A program made the position numbers and the translations under genes. Of a stretch of 64,000 nt of DNA, positions 17,601 to 44,859 are shown in pieces; the first letter of the stretch is position 1; every line of letters starts with the position of its first letter. The stretch lies in NCBI GenBank assembly GCA_973895155.1, contig OZ316896.1, positions 14,129,542 to 14,193,541 of the forward strand. Direction: 5' to 3'. The notes beneath the pieces were generated by a model. That model was not told the origin of the DNA. It was given only the letters and a program-made list of their open reading frames with translations, and searched no databases. This DNA comes from Marsupella aquatica (Eukaryota; Plantae; Marchantiophyta).

Positions 17601-20150
17601 AAGACCTTGCCTGACAAGGAGTTCCGGTCGTTCCCCGGGCCATCAACGAAGAATGGCTTCTTCCGGAACACCTGCACCAACCCGCACATAGGAGAGATGA
17701 TTGACTTCTTGCGGGTGACCATGCATTGTAACTTGCCGAGGGCAGAGATCGGCAAGGCACAGGTCTATCTGGCAGAAAGGCCAGACCCAAGCCGGGACTA
17801 CAACGGGTACCTCCTCAACCAATTGAAGAAGATCTTAAAGGAGGAGCAGTAGGTAATCGGCATGGGGAGCGTGTCGCGGCTGGGCTATCACATGCCGCTG
17901 TTGTGCCGGTATGCCAGAGGTCAGACTTTTGCCCCGGTACTTCCCCTGCAGGTAAGGGCACCCGAGGAAGCTCCAACGCCGAGGCCGTTGGCTGAGAAGC
18001 CTCAACCACCTGTTAGTCCTACGATCGAGCAGGTGTTTAGGCCCAGGAAGGAAGACTTGCCGATGCAGCAACCAGGCATGCAGAGTCTGCTGAAACTACT
18101 GGAGAAAGAAAAGAAATCGGCATCGGCAACAACAACGGCAACGGCAACAATGCAGGACACTACTACAGAGGTAGGCCTACACCGGCTCACAAGAGAAAAC
18201 CCCTTTGCTGGAGACAAGGAGAGAATCAGGCCGGAATCCAAGCCAGGTGTTCGAATGTACGTGGGAACCTCAAGCTCCAAATCTGAGGCAGAATTGCCTG
18301 AAGCTCCTACCAACGAAGAGGAGAGGGAGAAGCCGGACGTCCAAGAGGTAGAGGAGGCAGTGGAGGACTGCAGCCATGATAATTCCGGCTATGGGTCGGA
18401 CCATCACGTTCCAGGAGTAAGGACCTGTGGCCGGTTTGTCCCCACACTTCCAAGGGTAGTGCGAGGGGACCCCAACCAGCAGAGTAGCCCTGAGTCTCCC
18501 CCACCAGATGTTGCTCCCCCGAGCTTCGACGACATAAAACAGACGGTGCAGGAATTTCAGGAGCGAATCAAGCAGGAGGAGGAGGCCGCCCTGGCTAAGG
18601 AAAAGGATTTACCAGGAGGAGATTGGCCGGAGGACATCAGGCGGCTATCCAAAAAAGGAAGCAAACCTCTAGCCACGATTGAAGAGATCCGCAGGACGGC
18701 TTGGGAGCAGAGGCCGCGATGGGCGATGCCGATCACTTCTACTTACTCCACCTACGCTAAGAATAGAGCCATGGAGTATGGTGAGATGTGTGGGGAACTT
18801 GCGCTCGGCATCTTTGGAGAGGAGTTGGAGGTAGGACCCTTTTTCCATAGGGAGCAGTTGGAGAAGCACCAATTAGAAGAAGCGGTGGCTTTAGAGAGAA
18901 GCAAGAAGGACGAGGTCATTCGGCGGCTTAGGAGGATGGAAGCCGAGATTGAAGATCTAAGGGCGGCCAAGAAAGCCCAAGATGAACTGCGGATTAAACG
19001 ACATGAGCTGAACATCATGCAGGGGCAGTTGGACACCGCGTAGGCTGATAATCAGAATATCAAGGATAAACTGACTCAGACGCAGGAAGAGTTGGCCGAC
19101 ACGATCAAAGAGAGGGAGAAGTGGAAGCAAGAGCTGAAGAATACAGAGGAGGCCCACATAACAGCCAACAGCCGGGCCATGGCGGAGACCCAAAGAAAGG
19201 AATGGGTGTTGAAAGGGGAGCTCGAGAAAATCCGCGGAGCCCTTGAGCAGAAGGAGGCCGAGTTAGGGAAATCCTATCAAGGGATTATGGCGCTGCAGCA
19301 GGAGCTTGCGTCCCTGACGGCCAGCTTCAAGGCCGACCTAAGGGAGAAGGACGAGATGCTCGAACAGACTTACGCCAAGATGAACCAGATGGAGTCTATC
19401 ATCATTGCAGAGCTCGACAAGGAGCTAAAAGCAACCCAGGAGGAGAGGACTACCTTGAAACAAGAACGGGAGGAAGCCCAGAAGGAACTAGAGGAGGCAT
19501 GCAAGGACCTGGATGAGACCCAGGAGGAGTTGGAGGAAATCACGAGGAAGATGGAGAACCTCCAGCGGCGGGCCGACAACCAAACGGAGCGGCTGAAGAA
19601 ACAAGCCGCAGTATTTAGGTGCTTGTCTTCATCAGGCCCAACTCCAATTGGGGCAACCAAGTTACCAGGAGTGGTACTGGCCGAAGAAAAAGCCGCGCCA
19701 ACTGCACCAGTGCCGGAGGTAAGTGGGAAGGGGAAGGGACCAGCTGCCGAACCAGAAAAGAAGAAAAAGCGGAAACCTTCAGGGTCAAGGAGTAATCCGA
19801 CTCCACAAGCCGTGGTGACCAAAGAGGTAGAACCAGCACCATCCTCCGACATGAATACGGCAATAGATCCCGCTATGATCACAGGTAGGGATGGTGCGGC
19901 CCAAGCCGAACTACTCAGTAAGGAGGCCAGTATTCCAGATCTGCCTCTTGAGCAGGCCGGGGAGACCGTAGCCGAGGCTGAGGCCGTAACTGATTCTCGA
20001 GCCGATGCCGACGCCGATGGTGGACCCAGTCAGGCCGATGGAGAGTTGACTCAGTCAAGGGCAGGTAATCTGTCAGGGAATGAGCCTACGGCAGTGGCTG
20101 AGGAGGAAGCGTTGGGGGCGTCCATTAAGGATCCACCACCGGTGTCGTGA
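14630..20150 (+). pseudogene. LTR-encoded accessory ORF, 5'-LTR copy (3 nonsense changes plus a solo-LTR insertion)
   Basis: ORF pieces 14630-15139, 15212-15598, 17487-17852, 17862-19043 and 19092-20150 join into the same protein as the 3'-LTR copy. Stops are CGA>TGA or CAG>TAG at codons that are sense in the other LTR. Confidence 0.85.
15599..17481 (-). mobile_element. 1883-bp solo LTR of a different family (family D) inserted in the family A 5' LTR
   Basis: TGTA...TACA termini and perfect TSD CATGG (15594-15598 and 17482-17486); AT-rich, with clustered AACT(C/A)GTAA repeats. Orientation is inferred from a minus-strand TATA-like site and is tentative. Confidence 0.85.
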
Positions 20151-21075
20151 TGGTGCAAGGGCGCCGTTCCTTTTAGGGAGGGCGGACGTGGAGGGAGGAG
20201 GCGTGAGTGGGCAGGGCGGGCGCGGATCTCCACGTTTAGGATTAGGATCAGAACCAGGAGCGGCCCTGACACTTAGCTTAGTGGGATTGCGGTCCCACTG
20301 GTAGGAGCAACACTTGTGCTCCTGCCTTGCTGTACATAGGTAGATTCGGGCAAGTAGATTACTGTTAAGTAGATTAGGCTTACGATGCAAAGAATGGCGG
20401 ATCCACTACCAAGATAAGTACCTGGGCAGCGGGGAGCTCAGGGCCTCTTCTTTAGCAAGTTTTTAGTTTGCACCAGCCGGGCTGGGATCAAGTAGTACGA
20501 GAAGCTCTCGGTTAGACATACAGTGACCCTTGTGTATATTCATGTTTCCTCATGCCTAAGAGCTGAATAGAGTTGGCCTCACGGCTTAGTTCGCAGAACT
20601 TGTGTATGAGATGTACTGTTTGTATGGCAAGTGCATGGTATGACTCAGTCAGAATGAGTCATTTTGCTATTTGTGTGTCGCATTAACTTGTGTGAAGAGT
20701 GCCCACATCAACAGAAGGAAGGAAAGTAAGCAGGGGAGTGAGAGTTGGATGTGTCGAGCTAAGAGAGGTCTTAGCGGCTTAACCAAGCCTATTGGGGATC
20801 ATTCCGGCGGCGGAATCCAAACATACCTAACAAGACGGAGGGGAAGACAGGGGAAGACAGGGGAAGGTCTATATTAGGCCGGCTACGTATCTCATGACCC
20901 GATGAAGGATCTGTCCAGTATATGTGTGTAAAATGTTAATAGTAGTAGTAGAAGGTTAGCAGCGTCCCATGCCGCTAAGCCGCGGAAACGGCCTCGCCAA
21001 GCACGAAACCTGCGGGAATCGGCTTGAGCTGGGGGGTTTCTTGGGTTTAGGGAGCCATGGGATGCACCACATTTT

Positions 21076-21092
21076 TGGTGCTAGATGGAGGG
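21076..21092 (+). promoter_or_regulatory. primer-binding site, tRNA-Asn-like
   Basis: TGGTGCTAGATGGAGGG 4 nt after the LTR; two mismatches to TGGCGCTAGAAGGAGGG, the complement of the plant tRNA-Asn(GUU) 3' end as recalled. Confidence 0.7.
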
Positions 21093-21140
21093 GGCATTTC
21101 TTAAGCCGTGAGATATGAAGTTAGAACGGAAGCGTAGGTA

Positions 21141-23228
21141 ATGACTGACCTTACGCCGAGGGAAGAAAGAGTGATTCAACGGGAGAGAGCTCGACTGCAG
21201 CAGCTCGCCGGGTGGCATGATACACAGCGACTGAGAGGGGCAGAAAGAGCTGGTAGCTCCAAAACTGGAAGTGGCGTCGAAGAAGACATACCAGAAGAAG
21301 AGTCGGTAAGGAGAAGTGAGTCTCCAACTGACATGGGGGAACCAGAGGCACGGCCAGACGAGAGGCCAGGGACCAGATTGAGCCAGCGGTCGCGCATACA
21401 TTACAAGGCATTTCATGGGAGAGGAGATGAGGATCCGGACGAATGGTTGGATGATTTCGAGGGAACCGCTGCAGCAAATGGAGAATCGGCCATCAAGATG
21501 CAGATTCTTCCCGGCCTATTCAAGGGTGAGGCTAGGCCTTGGTACAGAGCATTAGATGTGGAAGATCAAGCCATCTGGGATATCTTCAAAACACTCTTTG
21601 TTAAGGAGTTTCGACCCATTGGAACTTCAGAACTAGCAGTGCTGAAGTTGGGACAACTTCGGTTCAAGGAGAACAAATCCTTCAGGAAGTTCTTGCAACG
21701 CTTTCAGAAACTGGTAAGACGTACAAAGACCAATGCATCTGAAGGTATGCAACTTCAATGGTTGGTGAATGCTTTGCCACAGAAGATGAGTTTTGCAATT
21801 AGGAAGGAGAACCCGGAGACTTTAGCCGAAGCAATTAAGGATATTCAATTATACATTAATGCAGATATCACAAGCTGGAAGAAACAACTTAAGTCTGAGA
21901 GTTCCTCATCAGAGAAGGGATCACCCCATAAGAAAAAAGATAAGAAGAAGAAACATCCCAAGAAGTCTAGAAGTGATAAGTCAAGCTCGGATAGTGGGAG
22001 TAGCAAGAGTGAGTCATCTTCTAGTTCTGAAGAAGAAAAAACTAGGAAAAGGAAGGGTAGAAGGAGAGGGAAGACGAAAGTCAAGATGGAGGCTAAGCCA
22101 CCAGATAACATCGTAGCCCTTACCGAGCAACTTAAGGCTATCATTGCAGAGGTAAAACCAAAGAAGAAGGTAGTACAGGAGGATAGCTCTGTATGGTGTG
22201 CCTTATGTTATAAAACCGGACACCATAAAGATGCGTGTCCTAAGCTTAATACTAATCATGTTCGGCATGTGGCCGAGATCAGACCATGTCAGGGAGAAGT
22301 AGAGTACTTTTTAGGAGATGCCGCTGATAGTGTTTTCGGCATCAGTGAGACTGGAGCACGAGACCTATCCAACAGACCTGCATCTCTGTGGTCAGGGTTA
22401 AGGAACAATCCAGGAGAGATGTATCCTCGGATTATTCAGAACCCGTCAGTACCTCCTAGGCCAAATGTGCAAAGATTTGCGGCGTGCTATAATTGTGGTC
22501 AACCTGGCCATTTTGCTAGAGAATACCCGAATGCACGCAAACAGGGTGATGGACAACCAGCTCAGCTATGTATGGGATGCCGACAGGAAGGTCATATGCT
22601 AGGGCAATGTCCTACTTGGTTGGCAGGCCTGGCCGCAAATCATAAGCTTTTGCCGATCAAGATCTTACCGCCAGGTACTACCCCCGGAGGAGTTCAAATC
22701 AACCACATCGAACTAGGATGGCAAGAGGATGCCGAGGCAGAGTTCGTACCATCTGCTGATGAGGCCAAAGCCCTATCAACCTTCTCAGAGGAGGATTTAG
22801 ATCATGATTGCTACCGGGTCTCTACTCGATCTACCAGAAGGAAGGAAAGGTGGGATGGGCTGGCCAAAAATAAAGGGAAGGTTACGGAGGAAAGGATCGA
22901 CTCTTCGTCAACATCAACAGAAGGAGAAGGGAGGGCTCCGGCAATACAGGTAAGCCATGAGCCCACCAGTGAAACCAATCCTTCACAAGATAGCGACTTC
23001 AATCGAGATCATCCTAAGTTGTTCTACCCCTCTGTTACGGCTAGTGTTAAGGAACAACTAAGAGAATTAGAAACCCTGGAGAATACCGAAGCCATTGCCA
23101 AGGATGTAAAACGAGCAAAAGCATTGTTTGCTTCGGAAGACCCAACAGCTGTGGAGACTAGCGTGGCAAAACTGGCCGAATCCAAGACGGAAAACACCAC
23201 CAGAAGAGAAGCCGATTGTTCCCTATGA
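21141..23228 (+). CDS. gag: gypsy Gag (retrotransposon capsid domain, Ser/Lys-rich linker, three CCHC knuckles)
   Basis: FHGRGDEDPDEWL...GEARPWY capsid-like region; CALCYKTGHHKDAC, CYNCGQPGHFAREY (degenerate) and CMGCRQEGHMLGQC. Confidence 0.88.
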   Translation: MTDLTPREERVIQRERARLQQLAGWHDTQRLRGAERAGSSKTGSGVEEDIPEEESVRRSESPTDMGEPEARPDERPGTRLSQRSRIHYKAFHGRGDEDPDEWLDDFEGTAAANGESAIKMQILPGLFKGEARPWYRALDVEDQAIWDIFKTLFVKEFRPIGTSELAVLKLGQLRFKENKSFRKFLQRFQKLVRRTKTNASEGMQLQWLVNALPQKMSFAIRKENPETLAEAIKDIQLYINADITSWKKQLKSESSSSEKGSPHKKKDKKKKHPKKSRSDKSSSDSGSSKSESSSSSEEEKTRKRKGRRRGKTKVKMEAKPPDNIVALTEQLKAIIAEVKPKKKVVQEDSSVWCALCYKTGHHKDACPKLNTNHVRHVAEIRPCQGEVEYFLGDAADSVFGISETGARDLSNRPASLWSGLRNNPGEMYPRIIQNPSVPPRPNVQRFAACYNCGQPGHFAREYPNARKQGDGQPAQLCMGCRQEGHMLGQCPTWLAGLAANHKLLPIKILPPGTTPGGVQINHIELGWQEDAEAEFVPSADEAKALSTFSEEDLDHDCYRVSTRSTRRKERWDGLAKNKGKVTEERIDSSSTSTEGEGRAPAIQVSHEPTSETNPSQDSDFNRDHPKLFYPSVTASVKEQLRELETLENTEAIAKDVKRAKALFASEDPTAVETSVAKLAESKTENTTRREADCSL

Positions 23229-24135
23229 CCTGGCTAAAGATGTACTAGAATCTAGAGTCTCGGCAACAGTAGGTCAACTATTGAAAAATAGCCCGTACTT
23301 CCGGAAGCAATTAAGGAAGGCTATTCTCGGCAAGCCGAGATTACCCAAGGTAGCAACCAGATCCGACGTACTAATGATAGAAGAAGATCAAGGAGCCCCA
23401 GCATTACCATTAATGATTCAAGGAGAATTATTACTACGGGTACCCATCGATGGAGGATCAGGGGTATGTATTATGATTGATTCAACAGCAAAAGGGTGGG
23501 GTCTAACACCGGAGATGACTGGAAGAGTGTTGAACATGGCCAATGGATATCAGGTCATTCCTACGGGAGTGTTAACCGGCATCAAGACAGAGATAGGAGG
23601 TATCTTCTTTAGCATTAACTATGTAGTAATGAAGCCGGTAAATCCTACGTCATTCCGGCTATTGATTGGTAGGCCATGGTTGTACCTAGCCGAGGTAATA
23701 GAAGATTGGGGTAAAAAGCAGTTCACTTTCGGGACCCCCTCTATCACGGTATCCTGGGACACTAAGGATGACCGTAGGAAAAGCATAAGGGAAGTAGATG
23801 GGTACGACAGTGGACTGGAGTCAGCCGATGAAGTACGTTGGTTAGAATGCCTCACTAACCTAACCGAAGAAGGTGTCTTTGGACCAGAGGTAGCCCCCAG
23901 CGGATTATGGCAAGAACCAATGGAAGGTGACTTGGAAGAAGAAGACGAAGAGGTCGAGGACTGCTTTACAATAGAATCCACCTTTTTAGCTGCAATTCCG
24001 GAGGAAGTAAAGGATGTAGACCAATTGGATGAAACGGCTAAGTGGGGAGCAGTAGCAGGGACAGTGGATTTTCTGCAGGCGTTGTGGCAGAGCCAACGGG
24101 GTCCACAACGCCATCGATCATCGGCAAGGAATTAA
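23128..24135 (+). CDS. gypsy aspartic protease region (+1 frame relative to gag)
   Basis: Active-site motif PIDGGSGVCIM and LLIGRPWL. Probably continuous with gag before a 1-nt slip near 23190. Confidence 0.8.
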   Translation: MLRKTQQLWRLAWQNWPNPRRKTPPEEKPIVPYDLAKDVLESRVSATVGQLLKNSPYFRKQLRKAILGKPRLPKVATRSDVLMIEEDQGAPALPLMIQGELLLRVPIDGGSGVCIMIDSTAKGWGLTPEMTGRVLNMANGYQVIPTGVLTGIKTEIGGIFFSINYVVMKPVNPTSFRLLIGRPWLYLAEVIEDWGKKQFTFGTPSITVSWDTKDDRRKSIREVDGYDSGLESADEVRWLECLTNLTEEGVFGPEVAPSGLWQEPMEGDLEEEDEEVEDCFTIESTFLAAIPEEVKDVDQLDETAKWGAVAGTVDFLQALWQSQRGPQRHRSSARN

Positions 24136-27100
24136 ATACCAAGGGATCGGCATACAAGCCGATTACGAGGGCAGAACAAATTGAGGCCCTATTAGAAGCC
24201 GAGAGAGCACAGCGGCCTAACTCTCAGGAGCAAGAGGTGGATGAGATGGACAGACACGATCCAGAGCCAAGGCAGGAAGGGGAGCCGACCACTAATTCAA
24301 AACCGAATAGACCGGTAAGGGGACAATCTATGGACACCAAGGAAGGGACCGACTCGGCTAGTCCAGCCGAGATCCCAGTTTATGGAGGTATGAGATTAGA
24401 GAGACTGGAAGCCGAACTGGACCCGAATTTGAAGAAGCAGATTAATATGATCCAAGCACGGCAATATCGGAAGCTCGACTTAGGAGAGGGAAGTGAACTG
24501 AACTTAGGGAGAAACCTAGCACCTGAGCTCGAGAAAGAGATCAGTAACTTATTGATTGAATTTCAGGATGTGTTTGCATGGAGTCACCAAGATCTAAAGG
24601 GAGTAGATCCAACACTAGGGGAACATCGAATTGATCTCATGTTAGGAGCCAAATCATTTCGACAACCAATTCGAAGGATGAACCCGAAGTATTCCCTGCT
24701 GGTCAAAACAGAAATCGACAAACTAGTGGAAGCTGGATTCATCACTCCAGTCCTGCATTCAGACTGGGTGTCTCCAATTGTGATAGTTCCCAAGAAAGCT
24801 GGACCCGATGGTAAACCCAAGATCCGGGTTTGTCAGGATTACAGGAAGCTGAATGAAGCAACATTAAAAGACCATTTTCCTTTACCGTTTACTGATATGG
24901 TACTAGACATGGTAGCCAGTCATGAACTATATTCATTCATGGATGGATACTCTGGTTATAACCAAATCAGGATTCGGCAGGAAGACCAAATCAAGACGGC
25001 CTTCATCACGGAATGGGGGATCTATGTCTTCAATCGTATGCCGTTTGGACTCTGCAACGCACCAGCTATGTTCCAACGATTAATGGTGAACATTTTTCAT
25101 GATTACTTGAGAAAGTTCATGGAAATCTTCATTGACGACTTTGCAGTATTCGGGAAGGCATCGAAACATGCTAAATACCTCAGGAAAACCTTCATGAGAT
25201 GTAGAGAGGTGGGTCTCAAGTTACACCCAGATAAATGTTTTTTTGCAGTAACCGAGGGGGTGCTACTAGGTCACAAGGTATCAAGGAAGGGCATTGAGAT
25301 TGACAAAGGTAAGCTAGCAGTATGGCTAGATATCATGCAACCTAAGAACATAAAGGATGTAAGATCCTTCTTGGGATGCATTGGTTACTATCACCGGTTC
25401 ATCAAGGATTTTGCCAAGCTAGCTTTACCATTAACCAATATGCTCAAGGCAGGAGCAGACTTCGAACCCACACCCGAACGAGTCACAGCGGTGGTAGAAT
25501 TAAAGCAGATGTTAGTAGAGGCCCCAGTCATGATAGCACCGGACTGGAACAAAGATTTTCATGTTTTTGTAGATGTCTCGGGCTTCTGTATTGGCTCAGT
25601 ACTAAGTCAGTTGGATGAGAAAGGAAGGGACCATCCCATATACTTCGCAAGCCGTCAACTTGCCGATGCCGAACGGAACTACTCTACCACGGAAAGAGAA
25701 GCATTAGGAGTCATTTATTCTTGTAAAAAGTTTAGGCATTATTTACTAGGGTACAAGGTAATCTTTCATACTTATCACGAAAGTTTGAAGTACCTAGTCA
25801 ATAAGCCGGACCTTACAGGCAGAGTAGCAAGATGAATTTTGCTATTACAGGAGTTTGACTATGAGCTGAGGATCAAGCCGGGAAAGTTACATGCCAATGC
25901 CGACTTCTTTTCAAGGATCACAGGTAAACCTGCCACGGATTGCATCGATGATCAATTCCCCGACGAGGAGCTATTCATTGTGGAAATAGCTGGTACATGG
26001 TACCCTGAGATTTTACAATTTCTCAGCACTTCCAGATTACAGCCAGGATTAAGCCGAGAGCAAGCCGCAGTCTTTGTGCGGAAGGTCAGACAGTATCAGT
26101 GCATTAAGGGCATACTGCACAAGCATGGAATCAACGGCACGATTCAAAGATGTTTGGAAAAGAGAGAGGTAAAACGAGTCCTACGGGCCATGCATGGAGA
26201 GGAGGCCGGAGGACATTTTGCCCCAGTAACCACGTCTAAAAAGATATTAAATGCCGGTTACTGGTGGCCCACCTTGCACAAAGATGTCTATCAGTTTATC
26301 AAACAATGCGATCCTTGTCAACGAGCGGGAGGACCAAGGGCGTCCACCAGGCATCCACTGCACCCTATTCTACCTCTGGCACCATTCGAGAAGTGGGGTA
26401 TTGATTACATTGGACCTCTGAAACCACTGACCCACCCTCGACGGAACAAGTACATAATCCTGGCTACGGATTATGCAACTAAATGGGTAGAGGCCAGACC
26501 AACAACGAAGGATGATGCAATTACTACGGCTAGATTCATGTATGAGCAGATCTTCACCAGGTATGGAGCACCCCTAGAATTAGTTAGTGATAGAGGAACC
26601 CATTTTTTGAATGATATAATTAGTCGTTTAAATGAGCAGTATTTAGTTAAACATAGGCCTACTACTCCCTACCATCCAAAGGCAAACGGGTTGACAGAAC
26701 GAGCAAACGGAATTATAGGAAAGATATTGAACAAGACAGTAGCTCAGAACAAACTCGATTGGGATGATAAATTGTTTGCTGCTGTTTTTGCTTACAATCT
26801 TGCCTATAAATCCACTACCGGTCATACACCCTTCTTCTTAACCTTTGGACAAGAAGCCCTGGTACCCATGCAACTTGAGATACCGACATTTCAAGTTACA
26901 ATTGAGGAAAGAGCCTCAGCAGAGGAGAGCCTAAAGGAGCGAGAATATAGGTTAGAAGCTTTAGAGGAAGCGAGAATGATTTCACTTGAGAGAGTAGAAT
27001 ATAGACAGAATATCATGAAGCAGCAGTATGATAAAAGGTTAAAAGTAGTTAGTATTCATACCGGTGATCTTGTGCTACTTTATGACAGTAGGTATAGTAG

Positions 27101-27308
27101 GTTTCCAGGAAAGCTTTACACTCGCTGGTTAGGACCCTTTAGAGTAACCATGATGTTCCCCAATGGCTCCGTACAATTGGCCAACATTACGGGAGAGGTA
27201 TATCCAGTTCGCATCCATTATGACCGCCTCAAGAAATACTATATGGACGAAGATGAAGTTGTTCGCGAGGATGCTTCACAATTAAGTGGGGAGCTATGTG
27301 ATGCCTAG
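24042..27308 (+). CDS. pol: gypsy Pol: RT, RNase H and integrase; one in-frame stop (TGG>TGA at 25833-25835)
   Basis: RT RVCQDYRKLN, MDGYSGYNQI, MPFGLCNAP, IFIDDF; RH VDVSG..EREAL; INT HHCC (GGHF..CDPCQ), WGIDY, SDRGTHF, NGLTER. The ORF ends 12 nt inside the 3' LTR. Confidence 0.93.
24066..24112 (+). promoter_or_regulatory. putative programmed -1 ribosomal frameshift signal
   Basis: Slippery G-GAT-TTT (24066-24072) in the protease frame, a 5-nt spacer, then a perfect 10-bp stem GGCGTTGTGG (24078-24087)/CCACAACGCC (24103-24112). It lies in the overlap of the PR ORF and the -1 pol ORF. Confidence 0.7.
27284..27293 (+). promoter_or_regulatory. polypurine tract, within the integrase coding end
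   Basis: AAGTGGGGAG, 3 nt before the TG of the 3' LTR. Confidence 0.75.
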
Positions 27309-30300
27309 ACAGGAATCACTCGGCCGGTTAAGTGGGTAAAGCAGGAAGGCACCCTAGGAACACCTTAGTATAGGGACAAAACAAGGAAAATATAAACAAT
27401 TAGGGGCAACCATGGAACCCGGGCCGAGGCCGGAGGTAAGGCTGAGGGTGAAAACCCGATTAGGGTTAGGGCGCGTTAAGCGTCGGCGGCTAGGAAGGAT
27501 CAACGGGAAGAAGGACCGGCAGAGGAGAGGGGTAAGGAGCGCTTGCAGGAGATGGTGGCTCATTTGCGAGCACGAACTAGGCAGACGACTACGGGAGGTC
27601 AACTACTGTCAGTTGCTTAGGCAAGCACTTGGGGAGAGAGTAGATACCGACGATCGACCTAAGGAGGGTATGAGCAACGTCAATCAAGCGGCACATTTCT
27701 GGGGATGCCTGTTCGAACGGGCAACTGAGTACATCAAGACTTACGAGGACGAGGAGTCAGAAAGGGCAGCTTGAGAACGGCAGGAGCTCGCTTGATTGTG
27801 GGAGCTGCAAAAGACGGCTTTCTTAGGAGGCGAACTCATCAAGGACGAGTTCCTGTGGACGCCTACTTCCAATCAACTCGACGATCTTCTGTTTTGCAAA
27901 GACAGCGTCGTCGGCATCCGAGAGGCCATGAAGAACTGCAACGACATACACTGGGAATTAAAGGGTAGCACGGAAAGGTGGACCCAGGCAACAGTGCTAG
28001 GAGAAACCTCCACGGCAGCAGAGATGAAGAGGAAGGGAGCCGTCAACGATGAAGCCACCCCGGCAAAAAGAACGAGGTCGGCGGCACCAAAGAAGCCAGC
28101 CGAGCAGCAGAGCAGGAGGCAGGGAGAAGCCGAAGAGGAGGAGGTCGATCCCATCAAGGCCATTCCAACCAGGGATGACACCTGGAAGGGCTGGGCGGCA
28201 ACCCTACCGGTGGAGGTGCAACTACATTTTGCACGGGAGGAGGATGCATGCTTTACGGCCATGCAGACCAAGAAGTACCAAGGCTTCATGGCCGGATCCG
28301 GCTTGGAGGCCTTTGTAAGATTACCATGGCTGAAGCCGGAGGTACCGGAGTCAGACCTATTAGAATTCGTGGGGTCATGGGAACCCGAGACCAATTGCAC
28401 GAGGATATATGGGAAGGATTTCTATCTTACTCCCAAGGTAATTGCCGAAGTGTTTGGCCTGCCGATAGGCAATAAGACCAAAGTTGATACCAGGAAGACC
28501 TTGCCTGACAAGGAGTTCCGGTTGTTCCCCGGGCCATCAACGAAGAATGGCTTCTTCCGGAACACCTGCACCAACCCGCACATAGGAGAGATGATTGACT
28601 TCTTGCGGGTGACCATGCATTGTAACTTGCCGAGGGCAGAGATCGGCAAGGCACAGGTCTATCTGGCAGAAAGGCCAGACCCAAGCCGGGACTACAACGG
28701 GTACCTCCTCAACCAATTGAAGAAGATCTTAAAGGAGGAGCAGCAGGTAATCGGCATGGGGAGCGTGTCGCGGCTGGGCTATCACATGCCGCTGTTGTGC
28801 CGGTATGCCAGAGGTCAGACTTTTGCCCCGGTACTTCCCCTGCAGGTAAGGGCACCCGAGGAAGCTCCAACGCCGAGGCCGTTGGCTGAGAAGCCTCAAC
28901 CACCTGTTAGTCCTACGATCGAGCAGGTGTTTAGGCCCAGGAAGGAAGACTTGCCGATGCAGCAACCAGGCATGCAGAGTCTGCTGAAACTACTGGAGAA
29001 AGAAAAGAAATCGGCATCGGCAACAACAACGGCAACGGCAACAATGCAGGACACTACTACAGAGGTAGGCCTACACCGGCTCACAAGAGAAAACCCCTTT
29101 GCTGGAGACAAGGAGAGAATCAGGCCGGAATCCAAGCCAGGTGTTCGAATGTACATGGGAACCTCAAGCTCCGAATCTGAGGCAGAATTGCCTGAAGCTC
29201 CTACCGACGAAGAGGAGAGGGAGAAGCCGGACGTCCAAGAGGTAGAGGAGGCAGTGGAGGACTGCAGCCATGATAATTCCGGCTATGGGTCGGACCATCA
29301 CGTTCCAGGAGTAAGGACCTGTGGCCGGTTTGTCCCCACACTTCCAAGGGTAGTGCGAGGGGACCCCAACCAGCAGAGTAGCCCTGAGTCTCCCCCACCA
29401 GATGTTGCTCCCCCGAGCTTCGACGACATAAAATAGACGGTGCAGGAATTTCAGGAGCGAATCAAGCAGGAGGAGGAGGCCGCCCTGGCTAAGGAAAAGG
29501 ATTTACCAGGAGGAGATTGGCCGGAGGACATCAGGCGGCTATCCAAAAAAGGAAGCAAACCTCTAGCCACGATTGAAGAGATCCGCAGGACGGCTTGGGA
29601 GCAGAGGCCGCGATGGGCGATGCCGATCACTTCTACTTACTCCACCTACGCTAAGAATAGAGCCATGGAGTATGGTGAGATGTGTGGGGAACTTGCGCTC
29701 GGCATCTTTGGAGAGGAGTTGGAGGTAGGACCCTTTTTCCATAGGGAGCAGTTGGAGAAGCACCAATTAGAAGAAGCGGTGGCTTTAGAGAGAAGCAAGA
29801 AGGACGAGGTCATTCGGCGGCTTAGGAGGATGGAAGCCGAGATTGAAGATCTAAGGGCGGCCAAGAAAGCCCAAGATGAACTGCGGATTAAACGACATGA
29901 GCTGAACATCATGCAGGGGCAGTTGGACACCGCGCAGGCTGATAATCAGAATATCAAGGATAAACTGACTCAGACGCAGGAAGAGTTGGCCGACACGATC
30001 AAAGAGAGGGAGAAGTGGAAGCAAGAGCTGAAGAATACAGAGGAGGCCCACATAACAGCCAACAGCCGGGCCATGGCGGAGACCCAAAGAAAGGAATGGG
30101 CGTTGAAAGGGGAGCTTGAGAAAATCCGCGGAGCCCTTGAGCAGAAGGAGGCCGAGTTAGGGAAATCCTATCAAGGGATTATGGCGCTGCAGCAGGAGCT
30201 TGCGTCCCTGACGGCCAGCTTCAAGGCCGACCTAAGGGAGAAGGACGAGATGCTCGAACAGACTTACGCCAAGATGAACCAGATGGAGTCTATCATCATT

Positions 30301-31965
30301 GCAGAGCTCGACAAGGAGCTAAAAGCAACCCAGGAGGAGAGGACTACCTTGAAACAAGAACGGGAGGAAGCCCAGAAGGAACTAGAGGAGGCATGCAAGG
30401 ACCTGGATGAGACCCAGGAGGAGTTGGAGGAAATCACGAGGAAGATGGAGAACCTCCAGCGGCGGGCCGACAACCAAACGGAGCGGCTGAAGAAACAAGC
30501 CGCAGTATTTAGGTGCTTGTCTTCATCAGGCCCAACTCCAATTGGGGCAACCAAGTTACCAGGAGTGGTACTGGCCGAAGAAAAAGCCGCGCCAAGTGCA
30601 CCAGTGCCGGAGGTAAGTGGGAAGGGGAAGGGACCAGCTGCCGAACCAGAAAAGAAGAAAAAGCGGAAACCTTCAGGGTCAAGGAGTAATCCGACTCCAC
30701 AAGCCGTGGTGACCAAAGAGGTAGAACCAGCACCATCCTCCGACATGAATACGGCAATAGATCCCGCTATGATCACAGGTAGGGATGGTGCGGCCCAAGC
30801 CGAACTACTCAGTAAGGAGGCCAGTATTCCAGATCCGCCTCTTGAGCAGGCCGGGGAAACCGTAGCCAAGGCTGAGGCCGTAACTGATTCTCGAGCCGAT
30901 GCCGACGCCGATGGTGGACCCAGTCAGGCCGATGGAGAGTTGACTCAGTCAAGGGCAGGTAATCTGTCAGGGAATGAGCCTACGGCAGTGGCTGAGGAGG
31001 AAGCGTTGGGGGCGTCCATTAAGGATCCACCACCGGTGTCGTGACGGTGCAAGGGCGCCGTTCCTTTTAGGGAGGGCGGACGTGGAGGGAGGAGGCGTGA
31101 GTGGGCAGGGCGGGCGCGGATCTCCACGTTTAGGATTAGGATCAGAACCAGGAGCGGCCCTGACACTTAGCTTAGTGGGATTGCGGTCCCACTGGTAGGA
31201 GCAACACTTGTGCTCCTGCCTTGCTGTACATAGGTAGATTCGGGCAAGTAGATTACTGTTAAGTAGATTAGGCTTACGATGCAAAGAATGGCGGATCCAC
31301 TACCAGGATAAGTACCTGGGCAGCGGGGAGCTCAGGGCCTCTTCTTTAGCAAGTTTTTAGTTTGCACCAGCCGGGCTGGGATCAAGTAGTACGAGAAGCT
31401 CTCGGTTAGTCATACAGTGACCCTTGTGTATATTCATGTTTCCTCATGCCTAAGAGCTGAATAGAGTTGGCCTCACGGCTTAGTTCGCAGAACTTGTGTA
31501 TGAGATGTACTGTTTGTATGGCAAGTGCATGGTATGACTCAGTCAGAATGAGTCATTTTGCTATTTGTGTGTCGCATTAACTTGTGTGAAGAGTGCCCAC
31601 ATCAACAGAAGGAAGGAAAGTAAGCAGGGGAGTGAGAGTTGGATGTGTCGAGCTAAGAGAGGTCTTAGCGGCTTAACCAAGCCTATTGGGGATCATTCCG
31701 GCGGCGGAATCCAAACATACCTAACAAGACGGAGGGGAAGACAGGGGAAGACAGGGGAAGGTCTATATTAGGCCGGCTACGTATCTCATGACCCGATGAA
31801 GGATCTGTCCAGTATATGTGTGTAAAATGTTAATAGTAGTAGTAGAAGGTTAGCAGCGTCCCATGCCGCTAAGCCGCGGAAACGGCCTCGCCAAGCACGA
31901 AACCTGCGGGAATCGGCTTGAGCTGGGGGGTTTCTTGGGTTTAGGGAGCCATGGGACGCACCACA
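27297..31965 (+). repeat. family A 3' LTR (4669 bp)
   Basis: TGTGATGCC...GCACCACA, followed by TSD TCCTC. Confidence 0.95.
27412..31044 (+). pseudogene. LTR-encoded accessory ORF, 3'-LTR copy: 1210 codons from ATG 27412, or 1124 aa from ATG 27670; two nonsense changes
   Basis: ORFs 27412-27774, 27796-29436 and 29440-31044 share one frame. Stops at 27772 (CGA>TGA) and 29434 (CAG>TAG) are sense in the 5' LTR. Contains a globular domain LPW..LLEFVGSW..TRIYGKDFYLTPKVIAEVFGLP, a long heptad coiled coil and KKKKRK. Confidence 0.88.
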
Positions 31966-32751: not shown

Positions 32752-35700
32752 TGTGATGCCTAGACAGGAATCACTCGGCCAGTTAAGTGGGTAAAGCAGC
32801 AAGGCACCCTAGAAACACCTTAGTATAGGGACAAAACAAGAAAAATATAAACAATTAGGGGCGACCATGGAACCCGGGCCGAGGCCGGAGGTAAGGACGC
32901 TGGGGGTGAAAACTCGATTAGGGCTAGGGCGCGTTAAGCATCGGCGGCTAGGAAGGATCAACGGGAGGAAGGACCTGAAGAGGAGAGGGGTAAGGAGCGC
33001 TTGCAGGAGATGGTGGCTCATTTGCGAGCACGAACTAGGCAGACGCCTACGGGAGGCCAACTACTGTCAGCTGCTTAGGCAAGCACTCGGGGAGAGAGTA
33101 GATACCGACGATCGACCTAAGGAGGACCGTATGAGCAACGTCAATCAAGCGGCACATTTCTAGGGATGCCTGTTCGAACGGGCAACTGAGTACATCAAGA
33201 CTTACGAGGACGAGGAATCAGAAAGGGCAGCTCGAGAACAGCAGGAGCTCGCTCGATTGTGGGAGCTGCAGAAGACGGCTTTCTTAGGAGGCGAACTCAT
33301 CAAGGACGAGTTCTTGTGGACTCCTACTTCCAATCAACTCGACGATCTTCTGTTTTGCAAAGACAGCGTCGTCGGCATCCGAGAGGCCATCAAGAACTGC
33401 AAGGACATACATTGGGAATTAAAGGGTAGCACGGAAAGGTGGACCCAAGCAACGGTGCTAGGAGAAACCTCCACGGCAGCAGAGATGAAGAGGAAGGGAG
33501 CCGTCAACGATGAAGCCACCCCGACAAAAAGAACGAGGTCGGCGGCACCAAAGAAGCCAGCCGAGCAGCAGAGCAGGAGGCAGGGAGAAGCCGAAGAGGA
33601 GGAGGTCGATCCCATCAAGGCCATTCCAACCAGGGATGACACCTGGAAGGGCTGGGCGGCAACCCTACCGGTGGAGGTGCAACTACATTTTGCACGGGAG
33701 GAGGATGCATGCTTTACGGCCATGCAGACAAACAGATCCGTAACTTCGGGAAAAGGATTGGCTCTGAGGGCTGGGCCTAGGGGTCTGCGGCTTGACCCTG
33801 TAGGCTGTCGGCGGTCTGCCCGAGCTGCTCGCGCGGCGAGGGCGGACCACCGCGCCAAGAAGTACCAAGGCTTCATGGCCGGATCCGGCTTAGAGGCCTT
33901 TGTAAGATTACCATGGTTGAAGCTGGAGGTACCGGAGTCAGACCTATTAGAATTCGTGGGGTCATGGGAACCCGAGACCAATTGCACGAGGATATATGGG
34001 AAGGATTTCTATCTTACTCCCAAAGTGATTGCCGAAGTGTTTGGCTTGCCGATAGGCAATAAGACCAAAGTTGATACCAGGAAGACCTTGCCTGACAAGG
34101 AGTTCCGGTCGTTCCCCGGGCCATCAACGAAGAATGGCTTCTTCCGAAACACCTGCACCAACCCGCACATAGGAGAGAGGATCAACTTCTTGCGGGTGAC
34201 CATGCATTGTAACTTGCCGAGGGCAGAGATCGGCAAAGCACAGGTTTATCTGGCAGAGAGGCCAGACCCAAGCCGGGACTACAACGGGTACCTCCTCAAC
34301 CAATTGAAGAAGATCTTAAAGGAGGAGCAGCAGGTAATCGGCATGGGGAGCGTGTCGCGGCTTGGCTATCACATGCCGCTGTTGTGCCGGTATGCCAGAG
34401 GTCAGACTTTTGCCCCAGTACTTCCCCTGCAGGTAAGGGCACCCGAGGAAGCTCCAACGCCGAGGCCATTAGCAGAGAAGCCTCAACCACCTGTTAGCCC
34501 TACGATCGAGCAGGTGTTTAGGCCAAGGACGGAGGACTTGCCGATGCAGCAACCAGGCATGCAGAGTCTGCTGAAACTACTGGAGAAAGAAAAGAGATTG
34601 GCATCGGCAACGACAACGGCAACGGCAACATGCAGGACACTACTCCAGAGGTAGGCCTACACCGGCTCACAAGAGAAAACCCCTTTGCTGGAGACAAGGA
34701 GAGAATCAGGCCGGAATCCAAGCCAGGTGTTCGAATGTATGTGGGAGTCTCAAGCTCTGAATCTGAGGCAGAATTGCCTGAAGCTCCTACCGACGAAGAG
34801 GAGAGGGAGAAGCTGGACGTCCAAGAAGTACAGGAGGCAGTGGAGGACTGCAGCCATGATAATTCCGGCTATGGGTCGGACCATCACATTCCAGGAGTAA
34901 GGACCTGTGGCCGGTTTGTCCCCACGCTTCCAAGGGTAGTACGAGGGGACCCCAACCAGCAGAGTAGCCCTGAGTCTCCCCCACCAGATGTTGCTCCCCC
35001 GAGCTTTGACGGCATAAAACAGACGGCGCAGGAATTTCAGGAGTGAATCAGGCAGGAAGAGGAGGCAACCCTGGCTAGGGAAAAGGATTTACCAGGAGGA
35101 GATTGGCCGGAGGACATCAGGCGGCTAGCCCAAAAAGGAAGCAAAGCTCTAGCCACGATTGAAGAGATCCGCAAGACGGCTTGGGAGCAGAGGCCGCGAT
35201 GGGCGATGCCGATCACTCCTACTTACTCCACCTACGCTAAGAATAGAGCCATGGAGTATGGTGAGATGTGTGGGGAACTTGCGCTCGGCATCTTTGGAGA
35301 GGAGTTGGAGGTAGGACCCTTTTTCCATAGGGAGCAGTTGGAGAAGCACCAATTAGAAGAAGCGGTGGCTTTAGAGAGAAGCAAGAAGGACGAGGTCATT
35401 CGGCGGCTTAGGAGGATGGAAGCCGAGATTGAAGACCTAAGGGCGGCCAAGAAAGCCCAAGATGAACTGCGGATTAAACGGCATGAGCTGAACATCATGC
35501 AGGGGCAGTTGGACACCGCGCAGGCTGATAATCGGAATATCAAGGATAAACTGACTCAGACGCAGGGAGAGTTGGCCGATACGATCAAAGAGAGGGAGAA
35601 GTGGAAGCGAGAGCTGAAGAATACAGAGGAGGCCCACATAACAGCCAACAGCCGGGCCATGGCGGAGACCCAAAGAAAGGAATGGGCGTTGAAGGGGGAG

Positions 35701-37559
35701 CTCCAGAAAATCCGCGGAGCCCTAGAGCAGAAGGAGGTCGAGTTAGGGAAATCCTATCAAGGGATTATGGCGCTGCAGCAGGAGCTTGCGTCCCTGAAGG
35801 CCAGCTTCAAGGCCGACCTAAGGGAGAAGGACGAGATGCTCGATCAGACTTACGCCAAGATGAACCAGATGGAGTCTGTCATCATTGCAGAGCTCGACAA
35901 GGAGCTAAGAGCAACCCGGGAGGAGAGGACTACCTTGAAAAAAGAACGGGAGGAAGCCCAGAAGGAACTAGAGGAGGCGCGCAAGGACCTGGATGAGACC
36001 CAGGAGGAGTTGGAGGAAATCACGAGGAAGATGGAGAACCTCTAGCGGCGGGCAGACAACCAAACAGAGCGGCTGAAGAAACAAGCCGCAGTATTTAAGT
36101 GCTTGTCTTCATCAGGCCCAACTCCAATTGGGGCAACCAAGTTACCAGGAGTGGTACTGGCCGAAGAAAAAGCCGCGCCACCTGCACCAGTGCCGGAAGT
36201 AAGTGGGAAGGGGAAGGGACCAGCTGCCGAACCAGAAAAGAAGAAGAAACAGAAACCTTCAGGGTCAAGGAGTAATCCGACTCCACAAGCCGTGGTGACC
36301 AAAGAGGTAGACCCAGCACCAACCTCCGGCATGAATACGGCAATAGATTCCGCTATCATCAAGGGTGGGGATGGTGCGGCCCAAGCCGAACTACTCAGTA
36401 ATGAGGCCGGTATCCCAGATCCGCCTCTTGAGCAGGCCGGGGAGACCGTAGTCGAGGCTGAGGCCGTAACCGATTCCCGAGCCAGTGCCGACGCCGATGG
36501 TGGACCCAGTCAGGCCGATGGAGAGTTGACTCAGTCAAGGGCAGGTAATCTGTCAGAGAACGAACCTACGGCAGTGGCTGAGGAGGAAGCGTTGGGGGCG
36601 TCCATTAAGGATCCACCACCGGTGTCGTGACGGTGCAAGGGCGCCGTTCCTTTTAGGAAGGGCGGACGTGGAGGGAGGAGGCATGAGTGGGCAGGGCGGG
36701 CGCTGATCTCCAAGTTTAGGATTAGGATTAGGATTAGGATCAGGCCCAGGAGCGGCCCTGACACTTAGCTTAGTGGGATTGCGGTTCCACTGGTAGGAGC
36801 AACACTTGTGCTCCTGCCTTGCTGTACATAGGTAGATCCGGGCAAGTAGATTACTGTTAGGTAGATTAGGCTTACGCTGCAAAGAATTAGGCGGATCCAC
36901 TACCAGGATAAGTACCTGGGCAGCGGGGAGCTCAGGGCCTCTTCTTTAGCAAGTTTTTAGTTTGCACCAGCCGGGCTGGGATCAAGTAGTAAGGGAAGCT
37001 CTCGGTTAGTCATACAGTGACCCTTGTGTATATTCATGTTTCGTCATGCCTAAGAGCTGAATAGAGTTGGCCTCACGGCTTAGTTCGCAGAGCTTGTGTA
37101 TGAGATGTACTGTTTGTATGGCAAGTGCATGGTATGACTCAGTCAGAAGGAGTCATTTTGCTATTTGTGTGTCGCATTAACTTGTGTGAAGAGTGCCCAC
37201 ATCAACTAACAGAAGGAAGGAAAGTAAGCAGGGGAGTGAGAGTTGGATGTGTCGAGCTGAGAGAGGTCTTAGCGGCTTAACCAAGCCTATTGGGGATCAT
37301 TCCGGCGGCGGAATCCAAACATACCTAACAAGACGGAGGGGAAGACGAGGGAAGGCCTAGATTAGGCCGGCTACGTATCTCATGACCCGATGAAGGATCT
37401 GTCCAGTATATGTGTGTAAAATGTTAATAGTAGTAGTAGAAGGTTAGCAGCGTCCCATGCCGCTAAGCCGCGGAAACGGCCTCGCCAAGCGCGAAACCTG
37501 TGGGAATCGGCTTGAGCTGGGGGGTATCTTGGGTTTAGGGAGCCATGGGACGCACCACA
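32752..37559 (+). mobile_element. family A solo LTR (4808 bp) carrying a degenerate LTR ORF (32867-36630)
   Basis: TG..CA termini, TSD TTCCA (32747-32751 and 37560-37564), no PBS or PPT adjacent. Confidence 0.95.
33730..33855 (+). pseudogene. 126-bp 25S/26S rRNA fragment captured in frame in the LTR ORF
   Basis: GATCCGTAACTTCGGGAAAAGGATTGGCTCTGAGGGCTGGGC is the conserved plant LSU rRNA segment; it is absent from the other five family A LTR copies. Confidence 0.9.
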
Positions 37560-39275
37560 TTCCACGTCTTCAAAAATCTCCTCCAAATCACTCATATGAG
37601 AAAATCACGAAAAAATGTCATTTTTCACAACTTCTCAAAAAACTCCCAAAAAAACTCAAAACAAAATACCATCGCGTAGCCCACGAAGCTAGGGGTCCAA
37701 CACTGAAAATCAAAATCAAAAATCGAAGGAGAATTTATACAAATTTTGGTCGGGGTGGGTAAAACCTTGGGAAACTCCCCCGTTTTGGCCACCTCAGGAA
37801 ATAACCAAAATGCCAAGTACAACCCATCGTCAAATCGCAATTGATCGGTGCGCCGCATTGCTAACTTCAATGGCTACGACCTCGCCAAGAAAGAACCAAA
37901 AATGTTACCCTTTGTGGCGTGGAATCTTTGTTGAATGGCCAAAAAACAGCTCTCTATTTTTTGGGAATATTCCCGCATAGTCAAACAAATCTCACAGGGG
38001 GCCGTTCCCCCTGTCCAAGCGGTTAAATATGGGGTCACTGAGATCGGGAGAACCAATAGAAAAGCCGAGAGGAAAAAACAAAAAATTGGGCACTTAAAAA
38101 GGGGGGTTTAAGCCCCTTTGAGAAAAAATACCTTGTATGAGGGCCGGGTGTACGCCGAGTGAGGTACTGGGCCAAGCACGGGGGAGTACGGGCAGGGCGA
38201 GTACATAGGCAGCTGCATACGCAGCCACGTACTTTTGCCGGGCCAGGCCGGTTACAAGGGAGGGGACGCGGTGGGGCAGTCGTCACGGCTGCGAAGGGCG
38301 TAGGGACGGGGCTGCAAGCCATGGCTTGCAAGCTCCGACGGGAGGCAAAGGGCAAAGGGCCGGCGGGGGCGGGTCCGGGTGGTTACAACCCGCGGGCTGT
38401 GGGTTTGGCGCCGGCTGGCGTTGCGTGAAGGATCGCGGCCGCTACTACGGCAGCGTACACGAAAGTATGGGGAGCACAAAAGGGATATCGGGGCTGGGCG
38501 GGCGTGATCGTGTGTATGTACACACGTTTCTGTGTGTATAAACACACAAAATGCCCACTAACCCCCCTTAAACAAAAAATTTGACCCTAAGGAAACTTTT
38601 GGCCGATTACATACCTTAAACGTCGTTGCTTTATAGGAGAGAAATGACAACAACCGACGGAGAAAAGTTGTCAAATTGAACCGGGGTCGTTTGCATGCAC
38701 AATAGAGGAAAAACCTTCTATCGCAACTCACTCTCTCCGCGTCAAGTGCCAATCCCGGACTCAAAATAACCACTGCGCCGCGATCTCTCCGTTGAGCCCC
38801 AGAATTTTGCGTTTCTTTCTTCAAGTCGGACGTCACGATGAGAAACTCAGTTCAGATGGGAACAAGCTCCATAGCCTGTGAAAAAATCTGAATGCCTCCT
38901 TCACTCGTCACGACACACTCGGTACCCACTCGGTAGCAAATCAATTACCGAAACGATCAGCTCGCTTCAACCTCCAACTTGAGCTATAACATGCAACGCC
39001 TCCCGCACCGCACAACTCACACCATTGGAAACTTGAACTATGGTCTCTCCCTCGAAAAACCGTCGAACACAAAAAACCTTCAGAACGACGCAAACTCTGA
39101 TTCCTCCGCACCATGGATACCAACCAATGAGTTCTATATACCAATAGAAAGCCCTCTCACTAATCTATCCGCTTAGCCACACACATTTGAGTTTCATGCG
39201 ATGAAACTCTGAATGCAACATCAACACTGAACGCTAGAAAACCGTCACAAAAAAACCTCATCACCTCCCAAACAT

Positions 39276-39287
39276 GCTCTGATACTA
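39276..39287 (-). promoter_or_regulatory. copia PBS, initiator tRNA-Met (TGG>TAG mutated)
   Basis: TAGTATCAGAGC on the minus strand, 2 nt from the 5' LTR. Confidence 0.85.
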
Positions 39288-39289
39288 AT

Positions 39290-39634
39290 TGTTGAGCATA
39301 GACGACAATTGTAACGGCAAGCCCATGAACCATCCAACGCACAAGAGTCAACACAAAGAGATATGTGGTTCACCTCCACATGAGGCTACGTCGACGGGAA
39401 CACACAAGAGCTTTACTGCAATCTAGGCCGACCGGCCATACCAAGCATCCACAACGCAAGCTCTCTCTATCTCTCAACTAGCTCTGTAACAATGAACCTG
39501 AGTTCCCACTCTCCAAGCAAACACCGCTTGGTTATAGAGTGTGCGCAACATGACTAACTTGACCAAGTCTACGACTAAGGTTAACCTTAACTACGGTACA
39601 GTCGTAACTCTAGACCTAAGAGTAAATCCTAACA
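39290..39634 (-). repeat. copia 5' LTR (345 bp)
   Basis: Matches 10495-10839; flanked by TSD CTTAG. Confidence 0.95.
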
Positions 39635-39796
39635 CTTAGGGCATGTCCCTCTTTGTCGTTTTCAGTTATTCTTGAATTGCTATTGAGACAGAGCTTTTCA
39701 GACAATGCTCATCAGTTTAGTACATAGGATTCAGATAGTGATTCATTAGGTGCTCCCAGCATATCTTGGCATCCCGCTGGTTTTCAGTTTGATTTT

Positions 39797-43812: not shown

Positions 43813-44162
43813 ATTTTGATACTTTGTTTCTATTACGCCTTTATTCAAGAAGAAATGTCAAGTTAATGGTGAGGAGAAGAAGATCGGAGACATTTTGCTT
43901 CTCAATTGCTCATGGCAATTTTGATCATTTTTGTCCAGGTCATTGCAATTTCTTCGACGAACATTGGAGCGACGGGTTGAAAGTTATGAGGTTTATGTTA
44001 TGTGTATACATATTAATGTGTTCCCGTGGGACCCATATTTTTTGTTTGGCCGTAGCGCGACCTCCTTTTGACCACATTATTAACAACCCTTCGCGACCAT
44101 TTTTTGCCATTTCCCGACCATGGTTGCCGATGAGCCTACCCTGGCCGCAGCGCAATCATCTG

Positions 44163-44859
44163 CATAGGGCCATGTGCCCATTTCCATTTCAACCCCCTCC
44201 TCTTTATGCACGATGTACATAGGGTCGCGTGCCCTCCTCCTTACGCCCTTCAGGCGCACCGCCTCGCCTCGCCTCGACATTCCTCCCCCCATTACATGAT
44301 GTTGTTTGTGCATTGGGCATCATGCCCTAGACTTAATGGCCCCATTTCTTCTCCTTGCCAGTTTCTAGCCTTTCCAGTCGTGGTCTTCCCTTTGCCTCCC
44401 CGTCTGCCTCCCTTCCGACTGCATAGGGCCACGCGCCCATTTTTCTTGCCTCATTTCCGCAGGTGCCTTTGCCCTGTTTCCTTGCCCATTTCTACTCTTC
44501 CTGGCCGTGCTCTTTCCGTTGCTGCATGTTGACCTACATAGGGTCACGTGCCCATTTTTATTGGTGTGCATAGGGCACCGTACCCCGAGTGTGTATACAC
44601 ACTTGACTAGTCCCCACTTTGTCAATTTTTCACCCGACCCGCACCTCCTCTATTTATGGACCCACTAGAGGTCCCTTCCAAAATTCAAGACTCCATAGCA
44701 TGCCACGTCATCATGACACGCTCCAAACAGGTATGGATTGGTTTATAAAATAAAATTACTTCACCTCTCGTGTTTGTGGCAGGATTTTGGTAAAATTGAG
44801 GACGCCATGCCGTAAACCTTGATGTCAAAATTTTTGAAAAATAACCATTTTATTTACCC
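44163..44859. mobile_element. DNA-transposon-like end with subterminal repeats (possibly Mutator-like)
   Basis: About five copies of CATAGGG(C/T)C..G.GCCC between 44163 and 44587; the segment ends in TATTTACCC, a GGGTAAAT-type terminus. No partner TIR was found. Confidence 0.35.

Follow-up and report, generated by a model that had tools for sequence, protein, structure and literature searches.

We analysed a 64-kb window (the whole stretch under study: contig OZ316896.1 of assembly GCA_973895155.1, positions 14,129,542 to 14,193,541) of the liverwort Marsupella aquatica, in which a retrotransposon has a long reading frame inside its long terminal repeats (LTRs). Self-comparison of the window identified six copies of one 4.6-4.8 kb repeat (family A). 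Two of these copies bound a full element at 14515-31965, which has the target site duplication (TSD) TCCTC at both outer ends. The 5' LTR (copy 1; 14515-21071, plus strand) runs from TG to CA and contains a 1,883-bp insertion; the 3' LTR (copy 2; 27297-31965, plus strand) measures 4,669 bp and has the ends TGTGAT..ACCACA. Aligned over 4,669 bases, the two show 31 differences, of which 28 are transitions. The primer-binding site (PBS; 21076-21093, plus strand) lies 4 nt past copy 1, and a hairpin with a polypurine tract (PPT; 27260-27296, plus strand) sets the left end of the 3' LTR; the latter was the window's best match to the pre-LTR module of a related element, L011 (score 59, next 30). Gag-pol (21141-27308, plus strand) contained gag, CCHC, protease, reverse transcriptase (RT), RNase H (RH) and integrase domains by Pfam, with frameshifts and a stop at 25833. 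Its polyprotein occupies the whole internal region (21072-27296) and ends 12 bp into the 3' LTR. The Pfam order gag, protease, RT, RH and integrase, together with TG..CA direct repeats, a 5-bp TSD, a PBS and a PPT, places the element in Ty3/gypsy. Neither an aRH nor a chromodomain was seen in gag-pol by Pfam, and RH runs directly into integrase with no second RNase H.

Three further copies are solo LTRs: copy 3 (32752-37559, plus strand, TSD TTCCA), copy 4 (48800-53524, plus strand, TSD GAATC) and copy 6 (58770-63352, minus strand, TSD ACGGC), all with the same ends as the full-element LTRs. Copy 6 is nested in copy 5, a partial family A LTR (57802-58769 and 63353-63734, plus strand) that it splits and that is cut at 63735. 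No second PBS was found elsewhere in the window. Because the 4.7-kb repeat flanks gag-pol with a shared TSD, adjoins the PBS and the purine tract, and occurs as solo copies with their own TSDs, it is a working LTR, and the long boundaries (4,669 bp) are its true ends. The TSDs of the full element and the three solo LTRs thus bear out the LTR at 27297-31965 that a preliminary description of this DNA, made from the letters alone, had proposed.

The LTR gene (27670-31044, plus strand) has 1,124 codons and lies wholly within both LTRs of the full element. Its frame in copy 2 was interrupted by 3 stops, compared to 22-51 in the other five frames, and none of 1,000 shuffles gave a best frame with fewer than 13, in agreement with the one long sense frame described before. 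The stops in copy 1 (15137, 17850 and 19041) were as reported; copy 2 had three (27772, 27793 and 29434), not two, 27793 being the addition. All 17 stop positions across the six copies occur in one copy each. The gene is full-length in 5 of the 6 copies, and copy 5 keeps only about 407 codons, which corrects the earlier count of six; nor is the gene intact in every solo LTR, as had been stated, since all six window copies, including those in copies 3 and 4, are broken. We place the start at ATG 27670, rather than 27412, as the likely one because frameshifting indels numbered 10 in the 258 bp before it versus 7 in the 3,375 bp after it, because third-position bias starts there, and because a profile of six relatives' N-termini aligned from this methionine with 26 bits (best of 1,000 shuffles, 9.4).

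The ratio of non-synonymous to synonymous substitution rates (dN/dS) was calculated by NG86 over 15 copy pairs, which share history and are not independent. Whole-gene values were 0.22-0.35 in 14 of the 15 pairs, well below 1. The two LTRs of the full element gave 0.49 (21 changes, p 0.12), as expected for post-insertion decay. In the central domain, dN/dS was 0.07-0.18 in the 14 pairs having synonymous changes. These substitution patterns indicate purifying selection and a gene functional in the replicating lineage; they say nothing of whether the present solo copies work. We are nearly certain that the family A LTR contains a genuine gene.

The predicted product begins with a helical domain (27670-27981, plus strand) common to family B, described below, and five database relatives, for which a fold search gave no clear match. 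A basic linker joins it to a central globular domain (28168-28830, plus strand), the most conserved part. The motif SxDNSGYGSDHH(V/I)PGVRTCGRF (29266-29331, plus strand) is specific to family A, present in 5 of 5 full copies and located in a long disordered stretch. It is followed by a coiled-coil-like region (29731-30534, plus strand; 267 aa, proline-free, with coiled-coil Pfam matches below cut-off) and a KKKKRK patch (30652-30669, plus strand; all 5 full copies, KKKKQK in one) that is likely a nuclear localisation signal. No transmembrane helix is expected in the product because its maximal 19-residue hydropathy is only 0.82. The globular domain, the motif, the coiled coil, the KKKKRK patch and the lack of a transmembrane helix had been pointed out before, and the nuclear-type architecture is supported.

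In the fold search with the central domain, the sole standout structural match was VANC21 (PDB 9LNK), at 8% identity. On this modelling, a VANC21/DUF1985/PMD-like fold is predicted, and kinship with the VANC/PMD fold is quite probable. No window protein exceeded the Pfam gathering threshold for ATHILA ORF-1 (PF03078), Transposase_32 (PF20167), PMD (PF10536) or DUF1985, and none of the five relatives' ORFs (open reading frames) did so for the same families. Weak Transposase_32 matches were confined to 3 of the 56 relatives aligned, the best having E 0.0058 and 17 bits where the threshold is 45. The ATHILA/Transposase_32-type domain of the preliminary description was therefore the right neighbourhood, now sharpened to VANC21/DUF1985, but membership of PF03078, PF20167 or PF10536 was not borne out at cut-off. 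In copy 3, a GC-rich insertion of about 122 bp (33733-33854) lies within the central domain, and the frame stays open through it. The central domain was also predicted in two Riccia sorocarpa proteins (P0165 and P0166) beside a DDE_Tnp_4 (Harbinger-type) fragment, which hints that DNA transposons carry this domain too, or that the gene models are fused.

A second LTR family has a gene of the same kind. The family B solo LTR (39797-43812, minus strand; 4,016 bp, TG..CA, TSD ATTTT) contains a canonical TATA box, TATAAAAG, at 43454 (LTR position 359). A leader rich in pyrimidines and a gene (43346 to 40693, minus strand; about 884 codons, one frameshift, two stops) follow. The central domain is 24-29% identical to that of family A, and a coiled coil is also present; no family B internal region was found in the window. 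A profile search against 1.84 billion representatives gave 63 relatives; 20 were looked up, 9 had species names, and all 9 were from liverworts. In an RT-RH tree (41 rows picked from the 120 matches listed, with REXdb references left out), the element grouped with Calypogeia fissa proteins with support of 100/100, apart from seed-plant rows, and these neighbours point to a liverwort as the likely host.

An RT scan of metagenome contigs identified 19 loci. Seven were too short or ended less than 400 bp past integrase, and five distant ones (36-39% identity) had no domain match. All of the remaining 7 had a sense gene of this protein family after pol, although only 60-70 codons from its start are on the L002 and L003 contigs. 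The distance from a hairpin-PPT-TG junction like that opening the family A LTR to the gene start downstream is 500-770 bp in L001-L005. In L001 and L002 the gene is inside the LTR, since the contig includes the LTR 3' end and the PBS and neither is found again ahead of the gene; for L003-L005 the placement is read from the junction only. L011, a circularly assembled element with a 991-bp LTR, has the gene between pol and the junction, which is the ordinary Athila layout; in both L010 and L011, pol is followed by a purine module. The clade of the window element and L001-L005 has L009-L011 as its sister group (Shimodaira-Hasegawa-like approximate likelihood ratio support 94 for the clade with the window element and 96 for both groups together, by a quick method with no clade test). 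The N-terminal domain known from families A and B is absent from the proteins of L001-L005, L009 and L011, which start with the central domain. TCCGGA occurs 11-16 times per kb in the non-coding LTR parts of L002 and L004 and not at all in the LTR of L011. Dense family-specific short motifs (TCCGGA; ACGGAAC/ACGCG) were seen at 1-1394 of L002, 4990-6092 of L004 and 2440-3100 of L005. There is good support, across a bryophyte Ty3/gypsy lineage, for a gene under selection within genuine LTRs.

The position of the gene relative to U3, R and U5 was judged from sequence elements of the LTR. A TATA-like box (box 1; 27390-27397, plus strand), the only TATA(A/T)A of the LTR, is the candidate promoter of the LTR gene and lies within 15 bp that do not vary among all 5 aligned copies. 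Directly past the stop codon, about 900 bp from the LTR 3' end, is a PPT-like hairpin and purine tract (31057-31080, plus strand), likely a relic or an internal primer site. The non-coding 3' part (31045-31965, plus strand; 921 bp) is conserved and TTAG-rich; its divergence is 0.07-0.10 versus about 0.4 at synonymous sites, and its length is like that of the L011 LTR. This tail is likely an ancestral-size LTR with its own U3-R-U5. TTAG(G) is enriched in both non-coding LTR parts of families A and B, but it is common to both families. A second TATA-like box (box 2, TATATG; 31813-31818, plus strand), 153 bp from the LTR end and invariant in 4 of 4 copies, is a candidate promoter of genomic RNA; L002 has TATAAAAG at -152 from its LTR end, matching box 2 at -153. 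When the window was searched with the L010 purine module, the top five places all lay just past the gene stop, one in each full family A copy (shuffled queries reached these scores in 0-1 of 1,000 on site and 2-5 of 300 anywhere in the LTR). Wright and Voytas in 2002 are said to have described two purine tracts around the env-like region of Athila; a phrase search of the papers listed gave no occurrence. We favour a gene in U3 with two promoters as the probable arrangement.

Several observations weaken or oppose this arrangement. The search with the L011 module was weaker: 3 of its top 8 places have no relation to the stop and rank above copies 1 and 2, and copy 4 was not recovered. Family B, L004 and L005 have no PPT-like relic, and the order of the two purine-module types in L011 is the reverse of that in family A. 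The sole canonical TATA(A/T)A in each window LTR is the one preceding the gene (position 95 in family A; position 359, with the pyrimidine-rich leader, in family B), which also fits a gene in a 4-kb R region, where box 1 as the single promoter would give a short gene mRNA with its poly(A) site in the 5' LTR or read-through genomic RNA, and gag-pol would be expressed by splicing. Past the stop, the sequence is rich in GT/TGTA, as in a 3' untranslated region (TGTA 7 times in family B, reached in 5 of 200 shuffles, and 6 times in family A, 25 of 200), and a donor-like word, GG|GTAAG, is invariant in the leader in 5 of 5 copies. However, Gag would then be 4.6 kb downstream of the cap, and the post-stop relic, the conserved 0.9-kb tail, the TATA at -152/-153 and the internal gene of L011 fit U3 better, so that we consider a long R region rather doubtful. 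It is far less credible still that the frame merely reflects G/A-rich composition, or that the repeat is no LTR but a short one combined with a duplicated stretch of internal sequence. The sense strand of the family A LTR is purine-rich and a PPT-like module lies within the repeat, but the shuffles never approached the open frame, the central domain is strongly constrained, three solo copies have TSDs at the long boundaries, and neither a TG..CA short-LTR copy nor a second PBS was seen in the window. The short-LTR structure, which the preliminary description had named as a refutation, is thus not that of the present-day element; given the relic, it may hold historically.

The best explanation overall, to which we assign a probability of roughly one half, is a selected U3 gene that encodes a nuclear, VANC/PMD-like, DNA-binding anti-silencing protein. 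Judged from the modelled fold, this protein may well counter the silencing of its own family. The ancestor would have had the order pol, purine module, accessory gene, purine module and 1-kb LTR, and plus-strand priming with a shift of the integrase end to a point upstream of the gene would have joined the gene and its promoter to U3. Genomic RNA would start at the downstream TATA and include a single, 3'-terminal copy of the gene, which reverse transcription would duplicate so that each LTR receives one. From the upstream TATA, a monocistronic mRNA would end at the LTR poly(A) site. The protein would be nuclear via KKKKRK and oligomerise via its coiled coil, while its central domain would bind short motifs in non-coding LTR DNA and keep the LTR promoter open. 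LTR-LTR recombination would leave the gene cassette in each solo LTR until decay.

A tentative extension, which we hold to be somewhat unlikely, is that a bryophyte Ty3/gypsy lineage moved a VANC-like sequence-specific anti-silencing gene into U3 and that solo LTRs act in trans for full elements. If true, each LTR would be a self-contained promoter, gene and set of target sites; clean-up to solo LTRs would remove gag-pol yet spare the counter-defence gene; and the VANC/PMD fold would occur in bryophyte retroelements, far from the eudicot DNA transposons where VANC was described. We know of no earlier retrotransposon anti-silencing protein of this kind.

The protein could also be a genuine accessory factor with a role other than anti-silencing: it might attach the integration complex to chromatin or centromeres, or scaffold the particle via its coiled coil. 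The element has no chromodomain by Pfam, family A copies cluster and nest in the window, and the N-terminal domain has no clear fold match. In addition, Phygy/Selgy/Tat domains are centromere-enriched in one liverwort (PMC12885004), and Athila-domain proteins have been modelled as coiled-coil pentamers of unknown function (PMC13547354). Three points make this possibility a limited one. The one structure to stand out in the fold search is that of a sequence-specific factor acting against silencing; the retention of the gene with a promoter in every LTR is in keeping with a trans-acting regulator; and the relatives' non-coding LTR parts hold dense family-specific short motifs (TCCGGA in L002 and L004). 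The protein might instead bind the LTR and dampen the element, by copy-number control or silencing as first described for host MAIN/MAIL1. PMD proteins act in Arabidopsis gene silencing (PMC5418596), and solo LTRs as added repressor sources could provide copy-number feedback. However, PMD-C was later assigned an anti-Polycomb role with an indirect effect on transposons (10.1101/2024.09.27.615353), and VANC, the transposon-encoded member tested so far, derepresses (PMC5735166), and we regard dampening as improbable.

It has long been asked what the extra ORFs of plant Athila/Tat/Ogre elements do (PMC7264820, PMC6317226), and the liverwort lineage offers a fold-based hypothesis, VANC/PMD-like DNA-binding anti-silencing. 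It is also a compact system for tests, since a single 4-5 kb repeat combines the gene, its promoter and the likely targets, and homologues without breaks are known. The lineage further shows that a 3.4-kb gene can be taken up into an LTR, and the path is marked by the internal-gene sister element and the PPT-like relic. Such genes would escape annotation pipelines that seek extra ORFs only between LTRs. Solo LTRs are usually regarded as dead but may encode proteins in these genomes.

The remainder of the window contains other repeats and gene fragments. The insertion that interrupts the gene in copy 1 (15599-17481, unstranded; TG..CA, TSD CATGG) is AT-rich and without a long ORF, and is likely a solo LTR of a third, unrelated family. 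Five copies of a 345-bp repeat (10495-10842, 39290-39636, 48193-48536, 54751-55094 and 56349-56698) are 89-95% alike, with the ends TGTTGAGC..CCTAACA, and are likely short copia-type solo LTRs or LTR ends. A broken Ty1/copia pol (integrase, SH3 and RVT_2 by Pfam) lies at 11312-13722 on the minus strand. On the plus strand, 5367-5699 is an exon of a host NAD-dependent epimerase/dehydratase, presumably resembling plant farnesol dehydrogenase, and 45212-45343 is an EF-hand, calmodulin-like fragment with no evident full gene by eye. The sequence that cuts copy 5 (63735-64000) starts with TG, is TTAG-rich and resembles family B at its start (TGTGAC); it may be a further LTR family. Repeat-like DNA between LTR copies (37560-39290 and 43813-46500), with GC-rich and CATAGGG-rich tracts, is possibly made up of DNA-transposon remnants.

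Known systems resemble the family A gene in part. VANC21 of VANDAL21, a Mutator-like DNA transposon, is a sequence-specific anti-silencing factor (PDB 9LNK; PMC5735166), and VANC proteins have a coiled coil (PMC13547354). Likewise, the family A protein has a coiled-coil region beside a globular domain. The short-motif density in L002, L004 and L005 calls VANC target arrays to mind. Unlike VANC21, the family A gene is in a Ty3/gypsy LTR and not in a VANDAL/Mutator element, shares 8% identity, has an extra N-terminal domain and is anti-silencing by prediction; no tandem target array like that of VANC21 was found in family A. The 3' extra ORFs of Athila/OTA elements include ATHILA ORF-1 (PF03078), Transposase_32 (PF20167) and PMD-A (PF10536) (PMC6317226, PMC11728184, PMC5418596). 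Family A shares with them a sense accessory ORF after pol, a non-chromovirus Ty3/gypsy context and a putative nuclear signal, and L011 has the exact internal layout. Like the Athila clade, it also lacks an aRH and a chromodomain by Pfam. In contrast, the family A gene is inside the LTR, duplicated and kept in solo LTRs, its product is 1,124 aa long, and the PBS of the element is not of the tRNA-Asp type. The window PBS differs from the TGGCGCCG(C/T)TGCC type of L001, L002 and L011, which is presumably the tRNA-Asp type (PMC1142308). An extra ORF between pol and the 3' LTR, a trait of Athila, is found in L011 and not in family A.

Mouse mammary tumour virus (MMTV) sag and lentiviral nef are genes in U3, present at both provirus ends, and sag encodes about 320 aa. 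The family A gene is similarly within both LTRs, but its protein is about 3.5 times longer than that of sag and has no membrane helix, the element is a plant retrotransposon without env, and no homology to MMTV sag or lentiviral nef was found. Phygy and Selgy non-chromoviruses are described as short elements without extra ORFs (PMC6317226). As in these elements, the family A polyprotein fills nearly all of the internal region, aRH and chromodomain are absent, and the host is not a seed plant; compared by description, family A differs in its 15.6-kb length (insertion excluded), 4.7-kb coding LTRs and 1,124-codon gene. Ogre and Diaspora also have long LTRs (2-6.5 kb), which the accessible sections of PMC6431247 and PMC1142308 treat as non-coding, with extra ORFs internal or absent. 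The literature surveyed (titles and the starts of abstracts, with subscription journals and Repbase reports outside this scope and a prior mention possible) held no prior description of a plant LTR-embedded gene. The family A gene falls outside VANC, the Pfam accessory families, canonical Athila and Phygy/Selgy as described. By analogy, it plausibly works like a VANC/PMD-type accessory factor and is placed like MMTV sag.

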